Origin: Clostridia bacterium
GTDB taxonomy: Bacteria > Bacillota > Clostridia > TANB77 > CAG-508
Length of the DNA stretch: 64,000 bases
Direction of reading: 5' to 3'
Assembly: GCA_016290095.1 (NCBI GenBank)
Contig: JAEESU010000010.1
Span: 155,286 to 219,285, forward strand
The position numbers and the translations under genes were made by a program. The notes beneath the pieces were generated by a model that did no database searches, was not told the origin of the DNA, and worked only from the letters and a program-made list of their open reading frames with translations. Position 1 is the first letter of the stretch; every line of letters begins with the position of its first letter. Positions 52,114-57,532 of the stretch are shown piece by piece.

Positions 52114-52692
52114 ATGAACTACGTGGAATTCTTGATGATGGTGCTTGGTAGCATCTTCAGTCTGCCCGTTAAGGGTATCATCTACGCTGAGGAGCAGTTT
52201 CTCCAGTGGCACATCGTGCTCGGCGGAGTCTACCTTCAGCGGCTCATGCCGACGATCATCACAATCTTGGCGATTTACTTCGTCATCATGACGGTGTTCG
52301 CAAATCGGCAGCATCCCTTCCACGGCGGACATCACCATTTCGGGAACATCCTGCATCACATTTGGCGCTTCGTCGTCACTATCGTGTTTGCGTGGTTTTT
52401 CCTGCTCTATGGTGTCGTGGCTGGGAACAACGAACAGGCACAGAGGAGTGCCACTACGACCTACACTTATAGGAGACGGTTTGGTCGTATGTTCGAAGGT
52501 GTGAATACCTTCACGCGTGTCTCCCTTCATTTCAGGCTCGGCAGATGGTTGTACAACATCCTCTACCGTGTCCTGGGGCACATTCCTGCTCTGGAACGCA
52601 ACGCGCGCGTCCACCGGATTGTTGCCTTGACCATTGCTTTGGTGATCTGTCTCTGGGGTGTGTGGAATATCCCTTATGACCTCACTCACTAA
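52114..52692 (+). CDS. GC-anomalous (~52% GC) four-TM membrane protein with a His cluster (HPFHGGHHHFGNILHH); unknown family
   Basis: AGAGGAG site 8 nt upstream. GC3 in this frame is about 70%, against about 50% at codon position 1. A GC-rich terminator follows immediately. The flanks are about 27% GC. Confidence 0.55.
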   Translation: MNYVEFLMMVLGSIFSLPVKGIIYAEEQFLQWHIVLGGVYLQRLMPTIITILAIYFVIMTVFANRQHPFHGGHHHFGNILHHIWRFVVTIVFAWFFLLYGVVAGNNEQAQRSATTTYTYRRRFGRMFEGVNTFTRVSLHFRLGRWLYNILYRVLGHIPALERNARVHRIVALTIALVICLWGVWNIPYDLTH

Positions 52693-55713: not shown

Positions 55714-55980
55714 ATGAATAGCCAAAATGGAACAACACTAGTTGCCTTAATTGTAGTAATGTTTCTAATGTTAATTTTAGCAGGAATATCTATTTCTCTT
55801 GTAGTTACTTCAGACCAACAAAAAGGTAATCAAGGAGTTAAAACGTCAGTTCCTTTAATAATAGATGATATAGAAGAACCTTCTACTGAAAATACAGAAG
55901 AAATCGAACAAACAGAAGAAAATAATATAGCTGAGAATTTAGAGGATAATAGTATAGTAGAAAATACTGTGGTTGAGTAA
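55714..55980 (+). CDS. Small membrane-anchored hypothetical protein (pilin-like N-terminus without the canonical prepilin motif)
   Basis: AGGAGG RBS; 'TLVALIVVMFLMLILAGISISLVV' TM; acidic C-terminus. Confidence 0.4.
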   Translation: MNSQNGTTLVALIVVMFLMLILAGISISLVVTSDQQKGNQGVKTSVPLIIDDIEEPSTENTEEIEQTEENNIAENLEDNSIVENTVVE

Positions 55981-55981
55981 A

Positions 55982-56464
55982 ATGTTAAATATTAATATTA
56001 TATGTGTTGGAAAGATAAAAGAAAACTACTTAAAAGATGCAATTAATGAATATTCAAAAAGATTATCTAAATATTGTAATTTAAAAATTATAGAAGTTTC
56101 TGATGAAAAATTACCTGCAAAATTAAATGAAAGTACAATAACTGAAACCAAAGAAAAAGAGTGCTGTAAAATTATGGAACATCTTAAAAAAGACTCATAC
56201 GTATTAGCGCTAGATTTATTAGGTAAAGAGTTTTCATCAGAACAATTTTCTGAAAAAATAGAAAACACAAAAGTCAAAGGATTTAGTACTATATCTTTTA
56301 TTATAGGTGGAACTCTAGGATTAAATGATTCTGTAAGAAACAGTGCAAATGAATTAATAAGTTTTTCTAAAATGACTTTTCCACACCAATTAATAAGAGT
56401 GTTTCTTTTAGAACAGCTATTTAGGGCTTTTAAAATATCAAATAATGAGACATATCATTGGTAA
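55982..56464 (+). CDS. rlmH: 23S rRNA (pseudouridine1915-N3)-methyltransferase RlmH
   Basis: 'MLNINIICVGKIKE.YL...I.EY.KRL' and 'LSFSKMTFPHQLIRVFLLEQLFRAF' are collinear with B. subtilis RlmH. Confidence 0.85.
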   Translation: MLNINIICVGKIKENYLKDAINEYSKRLSKYCNLKIIEVSDEKLPAKLNESTITETKEKECCKIMEHLKKDSYVLALDLLGKEFSSEQFSEKIENTKVKGFSTISFIIGGTLGLNDSVRNSANELISFSKMTFPHQLIRVFLLEQLFRAFKISNNETYHW

Positions 56465-56496
56465 AATGCTAATTTAAATTAGCATTTTTTATTTTG
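56464..56496 (+). terminator. Rho-independent terminator after rlmH
   Basis: Stem aaatgctaatt / aattagcattt followed by a T-run. Confidence 0.65.
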
Positions 56497-56511
56497 AAAT
56501 TTTAGATCAAT

Positions 56512-56540
56512 TTGACATAATATTCGAAAAATATTATAAT
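56512..56540 (+). promoter_or_regulatory. Perfect-consensus sigma-A promoter (TTGACA-17-TATAAT) driving GC islet 3
   Basis: ttgaca at 56512-17, a 17-nt spacer, then tataat at 56535-40. It is followed by a short hairpin (gccagtaaatctggc) and a GGAGG RBS. Confidence 0.55.
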
Positions 56541-56590
56541 TAAAGTATGCCAGTAAATCTGGCAAATAATTTATTGGAGGTATAACCACC

Positions 56591-57403
56591 ATGACAATCC
56601 GGAAGAGTACACTGGTTCTAGTAGCTGTGATTCTGGCTATCGCCACATTCGCTTGCACTGCATGCGCATTGGCCGATGACTATGAATACAACTGCGTAAT
56701 TGTCGATTTTATCGACGCAGCAAACATTCGCGACACTGCAAACAAGAACAAAGTGCTGGGCTCTATTCCAGCAGGAACACCAATTTACGTTGTTGAACCT
56801 GGAACTTTCTTTTCTAAAGTCGAGTACGAAGGTTGCATTGTTTTGGTTTTCACTGAATATATCCAAGAGATTGAACCAGGAACTGTTTTCCATAAACCGA
56901 AAAAGGCTCCTGAAAAGCTTTACACACTTGAAGGCACTACTCCATATCGGGTAAAACTGAACATGGGAACGTGGATCAATGTGCGAAGGTCAAAGAGTCT
57001 TGATGCTGGTTCGTCTGGCCAGCTCTATCGTGGCGATTTCGTCTATGTTCGGAAGATCACATCTGACGGCTGGGCGACAATCATCTACAACAATCGTGCA
57101 CGGTATATTGAGAGCAAATGGCTTGAACTTGTGACTGATGAAATGGAAGTTCTCGAAACTCCGGTCGGAAGTTACAAACTGGTAAATCCCAGAAATGATG
57201 GAACGCACACTGTGTATCTGCGTAAAGAAGCATCGGTGTATGCTGATATCCGAACCAAAGTAACATTCGGTACTGTTGTTGAGGTCCTGGAGGACTATGG
57301 TGCATGGGCATTGGTAAACATTCCTTCGATTGAAAAACAAGGCTATATGATGACGTTCTACATGGAGCCTTACGAGGGAGAAGAGATCACTGCCAACAAT
57401 TGA
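56591..57403 (+). CDS. GC-anomalous (~46% GC) secreted protein with three bacterial SH3 (SH3b-like) repeats
   Basis: Signal peptide '...ACALA|DD'. Three repeats of the '.N(I/V)R......(V/L)G......V.V.E..G.WA.V' type (ANIRDT..., INVRRSK...DGWATI, VYLRKEA...YGAWALV). Own promoter, RBS and GC-rich terminator. Confidence 0.55.
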   Translation: MTIRKSTLVLVAVILAIATFACTACALADDYEYNCVIVDFIDAANIRDTANKNKVLGSIPAGTPIYVVEPGTFFSKVEYEGCIVLVFTEYIQEIEPGTVFHKPKKAPEKLYTLEGTTPYRVKLNMGTWINVRRSKSLDAGSSGQLYRGDFVYVRKITSDGWATIIYNNRARYIESKWLELVTDEMEVLETPVGSYKLVNPRNDGTHTVYLRKEASVYADIRTKVTFGTVVEVLEDYGAWALVNIPSIEKQGYMMTFYMEPYEGEEITANN

Positions 57404-57433
57404 ATACTCCAAGAAAACCACTGAAATATGTGG

Positions 57434-57470
57434 ATTCCGGGCTGCTTTGCGGTCCGGAATTTTTATATTT
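57434..57470 (+). terminator. GC-rich rho-independent terminator closing islet 3
   Basis: ttccgggctgctttgcggtccggaa followed by tttttatatttt. Confidence 0.65.
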
Positions 57471-57532
57471 TATTTCCTTGCCTAGAAAAATATTATATGA
57501 TATAATTTTTTTGGATTTTTAGGAGAAGTTTT

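Follow-up and report, generated by a model that had tools for sequence, protein, structure and literature searches.

In CpAcp and in phage endolysins, SH3b repeats bind the cell wall (PMC8470621, PMC8179006). The Clostridium perfringens autolysin Acp and the endolysin Psm of phage phiSM101 (PDB 4KRT) carry tandem wall-binding SH3b repeats (Pfam SH3_3) together with a catalytic glycosidase domain. SH3b domains are also present in NlpC/P60 endopeptidases, such as BT_1314/BACOVA_00612 'dipeptidyl-peptidase VI', the YkfC-like BCE_2878 of B. cereus and Trichomonas NlpC1/2, where they help to position the substrate for the attached cysteine peptidase. The SH3b targeting domain of lysostaphin/ALE-1 and the GW modules of Listeria InlB/Ami belong to different subfamilies (SH3_5 and GW) and always anchor another functional domain. 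Here we describe a gene in a 64-kb stretch of contig JAEESU010000010.1 from a Clostridia bacterium; the whole stretch is called the window. The gene lies between rlmH and truB and encodes a 270-residue protein with three SH3b repeats. The repeats are like those of Acp and Psm, but the protein has neither a glycosidase nor a peptidase attached, and its identity to Acp and Psm is only about 15%.

We consider it probable, with real room for doubt, that the gene belongs to a strongly expressed triple-SH3b wall protein cassette that was inserted once, is old and has its GC content held at a steady state. As a protein it is a further member of the well-known SH3b domain family, and an ordinary one. 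The unusual feature appears to be a long-term, family-wide mid-GC coding sequence with a conserved high-expression layout in very AT-rich genomes.

Distribution and base composition of the SH3b gene

The window has about 26% GC overall. GC-rich stretches stand out at three places (islets 1 to 3), of which the SH3b gene is the third.

56591-57403, + strand: SH3b coding sequence (CDS), an 813-nt open reading frame (ORF) with the stop codon included, encoding 270 residues

The CDS has a GC of 0.445, with 0.51, 0.39 and 0.44 at the first, second and third codon positions (GC1, GC2 and GC3). The flanking genes have a GC of 0.24-0.26 and a GC3 of 0.12-0.14. All other window ORFs of at least 120 residues, the genes of islets 1 and 2 excepted, have a GC3 of 0.07-0.17. 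The codon usage of the CDS is like that of a mid-GC Firmicute (CTG 0.31, CGG 0.20, ATC 0.44), and the gene contains codons never used in the sampled host genes. It thus has the atypical base composition and codon usage of an acquired islet (GC3 0.44 vs 0.07-0.17 in the host). The native highly expressed genes tig (trigger factor), clpP, clpX, ackA, pfkA and fba have a GC3 of only 0.07-0.12, and translational selection was rejected on this ground as the cause of the high GC3.

The upstream neighbour is rlmH (SPOUT_MTase) and the downstream neighbour is truB (TruB_N/TruB_C_2), with the Pfam labels taken from the orthologous locus. At least four other species-level lineages have an orthologue, with 50-80% amino acid identity, at this site. 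The same-site loci are L001, L007, L008 and L009 besides the window, and also L091 and L092; a scan of JGI metagenomes added one further, partial orthologue, L093. In every homologue with readable context the gene order is xerD, a small pilin-like gene, rlmH, SH3 and truB. The flanks are 76-92% identical in nucleotide sequence between loci, and a difference of 8-24% marks the loci as separate species-level lineages. The GC3 of the SH3 gene is 0.38-0.47 across five species, and that of its neighbours is 0.07-0.15. Only four homologue clusters, with 52-63% identity, were found among 5.8 billion clustered proteins. In this set and in a further 1.84 billion representatives, relatives above 50% identity were found only in the rlmH-truB context. 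The nearest relative outside the clade, P0010, has 39% identity and an unrelated context. A contig of NCBI GCA_016295045.1 (L090) is a second assembly of the window's own strain, 99.94% identical over window 56574-58287. One 1-bp indel in this contig splits the SH3 gene and yields a 146-residue truncated version (P0009), which serves as a public cluster representative.

A xerD scan of the GTDB representative genomes retrieved 80 related loci from uncultured gut Clostridia. Their record titles include Candidatus Scatovivens, Candidatus Merdicola and Clostridium sp. CAG:273, CAG:508 and CAG:567, names that we take to belong to the GTDB order TANB77. None of the 80 loci carries an SH3 homologue. 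In the seven closest loci that retain the adjacent pair the site is empty: rlmH ends in TGG-TAA, and the ATG of truB follows after 7-93 bp. All subclade members sampled, which span at least five species-level lineages, carry the SH3 gene, and seven outgroup genomes have the empty site. The original prediction from this DNA placed the segment as an insertion between rlmH and truB, and the comparison of this interval bears it out, the two genes lying 7-93 bp apart in the seven nearest outgroups. The prediction also implied a recent foreign islet. That part fails: five or more species-level lineages carry the same gene, with the same composition, at this position, which comes close to the occurrence across the genus that had been named in advance as the result that would speak against it. 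The gene is therefore old, clade-wide and vertically kept. A single old insertion in the ancestor of the subclade, followed by vertical descent with some recombination, would be the simplest history.

The search for a donor lineage, proposed at the same time, returned no donor, phage or plasmid copy. The GTDB representative genomes scanned with the orthologue alignment gave no match to a donor lineage, PHROGs and plasmids gave none either, and the two phage matches were weak (24-26% identity). The cassette has no mobility genes, no convincing flanking repeats and no tRNA near it, the only tRNA of the window being at 1260-1335; the one repeat found at the cassette is a 13-nt sequence common to the SH3b and truB promoters. 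The xerD-like recombinase 1 kb upstream was considered as an islet integrase and rejected, since it is the housekeeping xerD kept in all empty-site genomes. In two outgroups (L020 10195-11734 and L021 16510-18077), a native-GC gene of about 498 residues, with the look of a DHH-family (NrnA-like) phosphoesterase, is found at the rlmH-truB junction. The junction has therefore accepted insertions more than once.

GC at fourfold degenerate sites is 0.02-0.11 in the flanks and 0.39 in the SH3 gene of all five species, with base frequencies there of A 0.28, C 0.19, G 0.20 and T 0.34. The fourfold p-distance of the SH3 gene is 0.65-0.77 in deep pairs, and saturation for its own composition is 0.73-0.74. 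Sites that are G or C in both lineages make up 0.154 of the fourfold sites, which equals 0.39 squared. At these both-G/C sites the same base is found in 39 of 78 cases, where the stationary expectation is 0.50 and passive amelioration predicts 0.83-0.98. Two non-overlapping pairs alone give the same base at 10 of 21 sites (P = 1e-3 at a predicted 0.8 and 1e-6 at 0.9). In a model of passive decay the fourfold distance reaches a maximum of about 0.67-0.68, even for an ancestor with 100% GC at these sites. The proportion of 39/78 and the both-G/C fraction of 0.154 indicate that the G/C positions have been fully turned over while the GC level stayed constant. Such turnover requires frequent fixation of AT to GC changes, amid genes nearly without G/C at such sites.

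Acquired islets are said to ameliorate toward their host, after the model of Lawrence and Ochman. The composition of the SH3 gene is not converging on that of the host. The GC anomaly had by implication been taken for a foreign signature; the G/C at fourfold sites is reshuffled between lineages and the fourfold GC stays at about 0.39, which argues against this. Judged from the aligned orthologues, the GC of the SH3 gene is a steady state that is maintained, and not the decaying signature of a donor. The evidence for maintenance is internally consistent; it draws on only a few sequences from metagenomes and on a simple model of substitution.

A profile search of the 1.84 billion representatives identified proteins of the same architecture, 245-296 residues long, in other Clostridia metagenome-assembled genomes (MAGs). 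The DNA context was read for three of these distant relatives, with 27-35% identity.

L096 882-1772: P0011, 35% identity; between comEA and a dCMP deaminase gene; GC3 0.50, flanks 0.15-0.19
L097 5001-5891: P0012, 34% identity; after comEA on a contig of 30% GC; GC3 0.47, flanks 0.12-0.25
L095: P0132, 27% identity; in a Clostridia MAG of 41% GC; GC3 0.63, flanks 0.38-0.44

Both L096 and L097 have TTGACA-17-TATAAT, a spacer of about 8 nt, a stable 5'-proximal hairpin, an A-rich stretch, GGAGG, ATG and a GC-rich terminator. Their hairpins are unrelated in sequence and hold the same position as the hairpin of the window leader. L095 has TTGACA with a TACAAT -10 box and GGAGG, and its hairpin is at most a weak 4-bp stem read by eye. 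P0011 and P0012 are 45% identical, with a fourfold distance of 0.66. The GC excess of the cassette over each host, by our own calculation, is about 0.9-1.75 logit units in four host backgrounds. Since the distant loci repeat both the layout and the GC excess, the unit of promoter, leader, CDS and terminator behaves as one entity. The comEA-linked P0011 and P0012 have an extra Cys-rich tail at the C-terminus, for example CVCGTESCTCGAEDCDCG, which the window protein does not have. The tail may bind metal or form disulfides.

The dN/dS of the SH3 gene is 0.05-0.12 where dS can be estimated; the gene is real and under purifying selection. It evolves faster than its neighbours, with 50-80% amino acid identity vs 72-98% for xerD, rlmH and truB, and with a dN of 0.14-0.46. 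In the xerD and rlmH trees L001 is closest to the window, whereas in the SH3 tree L001 groups with L007 and L009. This conflict implies at least one recombinational exchange between lineages. Within one species (L007, L091 and L092) the SH3 CDS is not hypervariable: it differs at 16 of 792 nt, a lower proportion of sites than in truB, and these 16 variable CDS sites are too few for polarising the changes. Within-species differences (L007 4399-5277 vs L091/L092) amount to about 6% for truB, about 1% for rlmH and 2% for SH3, and one SH3 variant block (L007 4045-4090) is common to L091 and L092 against L007. This pattern suggests local recombination.

Cassette anatomy and the encoded protein

The following elements surround the CDS.

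56463-56488, + strand: predicted rlmH terminator, a perfect 13+13 nt inverted repeat (100% complementary) and then a T run, immediately downstream of the rlmH stop codon
56512-56540, + strand: promoter of the SH3b gene, sigma-70/SigA-type, TTGACA-17-TATAAT, 12/12 consensus match
56548-56564, + strand: leader stem-loop of 6 bp with a GCCAG/CTGGC core, beginning about 8 nt past the -10 box
56576-56580, + strand: Shine-Dalgarno (SD) sequence GGAGG, 10 nt before the ATG, conserved in orthologues
57432-57472, + strand: intrinsic terminator of the SH3b gene, a 14-bp GC-rich stem with a 3-nt loop (57432-57462), then a T run
57478-57506, + strand: separate truB promoter, TTGCCT-17-TATAAT with an extended TG

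The consensus promoter, hairpin, GGAGG, GC-rich terminator and rlmH-truB location that had been predicted are all in place, and the description as a self-contained cassette running from promoter to terminator is confirmed element by element. The perfect TTGACA-17-TATAAT occurs twice in the window, vs 0.10 expected from shuffles. The second copy, at 526-554, lies upstream of the ORF at 594-1235. Both hexamers of the SH3b promoter are invariant across all five species. The leader stem is preserved in the orthologues by compensatory changes (GCCATG/CATGGC and ACCATGC/GCATGGT). The stem-loop is a putative 5' stabiliser of the mRNA, or alternatively a DNA palindrome acting as an operator. Rfam identified no credible structured RNA in 56300-57700.

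L001, L007 and L009 maintain the structure of the SH3b terminator with covarying stems, and they have a hairpin of different sequence equivalent to the rlmH terminator. The inverted repeat after rlmH would shield the cassette from upstream transcription. The truB promoter is conserved in the same three loci and is absent in genomes with an rlmH-truB spacing of 7-14 bp; with rlmH and truB separated by the insertion, truB needs a promoter of its own. A 13-nt sequence, GAAAAATATTATA, is repeated exactly and in direct orientation at 56526-56538 and 57485-57497, 959 nt apart. It falls in the spacer and -10 region of the SH3b and truB promoters and is loosely kept in other species. The repeat could be the trace of a promoter that was duplicated when the cassette was inserted or, promoter sequence being AT-rich, could have arisen by chance.

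The protein is divided as follows.

56591-56674, + strand: predicted signal peptide of the Sec pathway, for signal peptidase I (SPase I), residues 1-28, with cleavage between ALA and DD
56687-56869, + strand: SH3b domain 1, residues 33-93, from Pfam and the structure model
56939-57130, + strand: SH3b domain 2, residues 117-180, from Pfam and the structure model
57167-57370, + strand: SH3b domain 3, residues 193-260, with the best Pfam SH3_3 stretch at residues 207-243, and from the structure model

Pfam SH3_3 (PF08239) matches three stretches of the protein with 53.1 bits against a cut-off of 27 (E = 3.5e-14). The AlphaFold confidence (pLDDT) is 70.9 with five sequences and 85.9 with a 17-sequence family alignment. 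The model contains an N-terminal helix at residues 3-29 and three equivalent beta domains of seven strands, and each of the three repeats has the small SH3-like beta-barrel fold. The N-terminus reads MTIRKS, then a hydrophobic stretch, which is the modelled helix, and then ALA before DD; the motif AxA followed by D/E is conserved among the orthologues. It fits a Sec/SPase I signal peptide.

Pfam, NCBIfam and PHROGs detect no catalytic family in the 270 residues, and NCBIfam matches are far under their cut-offs (20.5 vs 65 bits for TIGR04211 and 16.8 vs 560 bits for the EntA-type family). Beyond the signal peptide, the three SH3b domains and short linkers, no part of the sequence is left over. 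None of the peptidoglycan hydrolase domains of endolysins and autolysins (amidase, muramidase, NlpC/P60, M23 and so on) is present. The original prediction of a signal-peptide protein with three SH3b repeats standing alone, free of a catalytic domain, is upheld by the Pfam score, the three modelled beta domains and the way in which the signal peptide, domains and linkers fill the sequence; profile searches lacking SH3b support would have spoken against it. From the SH3b repeats, the lack of a catalytic family and the N-terminus, we infer an exported, non-enzymatic wall-binding protein. Its binding to peptidoglycan or another wall polymer would follow the behaviour of the family. Some SH3b-like repeats bind teichoic acids besides peptidoglycan (PMC8179006).

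Proposed history, mechanism and alternatives

In the history that we favour, the whole cassette would have entered the rlmH-truB interval a single time, in the common ancestor of a small uncultured clade near Candidatus Scatovivens, within spore-forming gut Clostridia of about 26% GC. The inserted unit would comprise the upstream terminator, SigA promoter, 5'-terminal hairpin, SD, GC-rich CDS, terminator and new truB promoter. Vertical inheritance under purifying selection would have followed, with at least one exchange between lineages. The signal peptide would be cleaved after Sec export, and the mature protein would bind the peptidoglycan or wall polymers of its own cell non-covalently. It would be an abundant wall-associated protein, with scaffold, shield and adaptor as candidate roles. 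What is unusual in such an SH3b protein is the combination of no attached enzyme with an apparent design for very high expression in an uncultured gut lineage of reduced genome, and it may be a major surface component of these cells.

The GC of the gene would be held against the AT-biased mutation of the host by selection on mRNA or DNA, or by GC-biased conversion. Bacterial mutation is AT-biased, and whether selection or biased gene conversion raises GC genome-wide, as has been proposed, is still debated (PMC2936535, PMC2936529, PMC4450053). In Bacillus, whole mRNAs are stabilised when the 5' end is occluded and a strong SD is present (PMC3997798). RNase Y favours AU-rich unstructured RNA, and GC is depleted near its cleavage sites (PMC11780869). 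The 5' hairpin, strong SD, GC-rich body and strong terminator would therefore make a coherent design for a long-lived mRNA. A stronger statement, which we hold only tentatively and think doubtful as it stands, is that the tri-SH3b cassette is a compositionally autonomous unit in which a gene-specific pressure keeps GC3 20-35 points above any host genome. The most coherent mechanism for such a unit would be selection for a long-lived, RNase-resistant mRNA. A consensus promoter, a 5' hairpin, a strong SD, a GC-rich body offering few AU-rich entry sites for RNase Y and a terminator stem of 14 bp would all serve this end. GC-biased gene conversion at a recombination-prone locus is an alternative mechanism; the tree incongruence supports recombination, but a GC-rich segment that coincides so sharply with the CDS fits conversion poorly.

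Several points weigh against the favoured history. The stationarity test covers five species and 59-97 fourfold sites per pair, with non-independent pairs and a simple F81-type model. Parsimony polarisation found no excess of GC to AT changes in the SH3 gene; it is strongly biased toward AT to GC in AT-rich skewed sequence, as the flank control demonstrates, and so lends weak support. The native highly expressed genes are not GC3-rich, so that any selection invoked would have to act on the cassette specifically. The signal peptide was judged by eye and by the structure model only. The tree conflict of L001 means that inheritance was not purely vertical. At the rlmH-truB junction a gain is a more parsimonious reading than a loss, as judged from the loci compared and not from a resolved phylogeny of the species. 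For this uncultured organism, the export of the protein, its binding to the wall, its high expression and the force behind the GC maintenance are all matters that we infer.

An ordinary islet acquired horizontally from a high-GC donor, its GC decaying passively and in parallel in all descendants, would equally display an atypical composition and an empty site in relatives, and parallel decay would also yield a similar GC3 in all tips. By our own calculation the third-position divergence of the flanks permits an ancestral GC3 of about 0.6-1.0, and islet 2 appears to lose GC in one lineage. Such decay predicts the same base at 83-98% of the both-G/C sites, however, and 50% is observed; the fourfold p-distances of 0.65-0.77 exceed the maximum of about 0.67-0.68 that the model can reach. 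GC1, GC2 and GC3 mutually fit a genome of about 40-45% GC, with GC3 not ahead of the others (compared with the Muto-Osawa relations), and two further clades have the same GC excess at other loci. We regard passive decay as very unlikely. In another reading, an unseen pool of about 45% GC, in phage, plasmids or other bacteria, might supply alleles that repeatedly replace the resident copy by recombination through the conserved promoter/leader and terminator ends of the cassette, each species then carrying a recent import. The CDS does look in every respect like a mid-GC Firmicute gene by the codon frequencies given above, the gene tree of L001 conflicts with the flank trees, the adjacent truB is unusually polymorphic within one species, and the same cassette sits at different loci in other genomes. 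It is nevertheless an unlikely source, as relatives above 50% identity appear only in the rlmH-truB context among the billions of proteins searched, with no PHROG or plasmid match and just the two weak phage matches. The leader and promoter are also clade-specific and far more conserved than the CDS, so that each replacement would have to break exactly at the CDS borders.

The same anatomy could also serve a different role, either as a decoy or immunity factor that occupies the epitopes on the wall to which SH3b binds and so blocks phage endolysins or bacteriocin-type lysins attacking from outside, or as an adhesin for host glycans or neighbouring bacteria in place of a structural wall protein. 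The lack of a catalytic domain, the predicted export and the strong expression signals agree with this, as does an evolution faster than that of the housekeeping neighbours (dN 0.14-0.46), as for a surface or interaction protein; the capacity of SH3b-like repeats to bind teichoic acids besides peptidoglycan (PMC8179006) would suit it too. We give such a role a low probability: the low dN/dS does not suggest an arms race, and the neighbours are rlmH and truB, with no partner lysin or immunity context adjoining.

Atypical GC is routinely read as recent horizontal transfer and expected to fade, yet this SH3b gene has kept its mid-GC composition through saturating synonymous turnover, and its distant relatives at other loci and in other genomes likewise keep a GC excess. 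If confirmed, the maintained cassette would be a clean natural case for asking whether selection on mRNA or DNA, or biased conversion, can override a strong AT mutational bias at a single gene. If the pressure is general, other GC-rich, self-promoted islets in the reduced genomes of gut Clostridia could be of the same class, and atypical GC would be an unreliable clock for horizontal transfer.

Other islets, neighbouring genes and known systems

The three islets of the window had been given one common layout. The general layout holds for all, but islet 2 behaves differently (GC3 0.69 in the window and 0.49 in L001). In islet 1 (16087-17142), two GC-rich ORFs that resemble each other lie in tandem; they have 161 and 186 residues and a GC3 of 0.42 and 0.41, and Pfam, NCBIfam and PHROG returned no family for them. 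Their products look cytoplasmic and acidic and have a common W-x-FCF-x-K motif; a strong hairpin terminator follows at about 17185-17215. Islet 2 (52114-52692) is a GC-rich ORF with a GC3 of 0.69 encoding a 192-residue His-rich, probably membrane protein of no known family, and the long ORF on its opposite strand is a by-product of GC richness. Its orthologue in L001 (2779-3351) encodes a 79% identical protein with a GC3 of 0.49, preceded by an extended -10 promoter and then a 5' hairpin. At 23 fourfold sites the window has G/C where L001 has A/T, and at 7 the reverse holds. In one lineage, islet 2 may be losing GC, unlike the SH3 gene.

A displaced RNase P RNA was considered for islet 2 and rejected, since there is no Rfam match and the sequence has coding periodicity. 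GC peaks upstream of a PHP-domain gene in outgroups (L010 6138-6490, L011 7378-7727 and L018 4492-4837) are rnpB, class A, with 250-279 bits. Within the 64-kb window no match to RNase P RNA attains the gathering score; rnpB therefore lies elsewhere in the genome, or the gene order is different.

Between xerD and rlmH, 55714-55980 encodes an 88-residue protein with a weak N_methyl type IV pilin motif below the cut-off. It is fast-evolving, with 55-82% amino acid identity between species. In the uncultured TANB77 clade, a pilin that is conserved has been associated with the response to immunotherapy (PMC11680825). About 1.3 kb downstream of the SH3b gene, 58758-60428 encodes a native-GC protein of 556 residues with a signal peptide, repeated 'GW'-type motifs, a C-terminal membrane anchor and a weak SH3_2 match. 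This protein was considered as a paralogue or source of the SH3b protein and rejected, as hhalign finds no relation. The L001 orthologues of the next two genes, 60425-61432 and 61445-62623, carry Peptidase_S66 (LD-carboxypeptidase) and Acyl_transf_3. With these two genes and the 556-residue protein the neighbourhood looks cell-wall related.

Besides the enzymes described at the outset, the proteins annotated as 'SH3 domain-containing protein'/YraI, the B. cereus EntA-type proteins and TIGR04211 SH3_and_anchor (YgiM) are likewise secreted or anchored and dominated by SH3b domains. The NCBIfam scores against them are far below cut-off here, and they have no demonstrated function to transfer. The leader resembles the 5' stabilisers of Bacillus (aprE leader stem-loop, ermC and cryIIIA STAB-SD), which also combine a stem-loop near the 5' end with a strong SD (PMC3997798). 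This likeness is positional and structural only. With the acquired islets of the amelioration model the cassette shares atypical composition and codon usage, an empty site in relatives and its own expression signals. Unlike them, it comes without mobility genes, tRNA or convincing flanking repeats, and it is clade-wide, old and stationary in composition.

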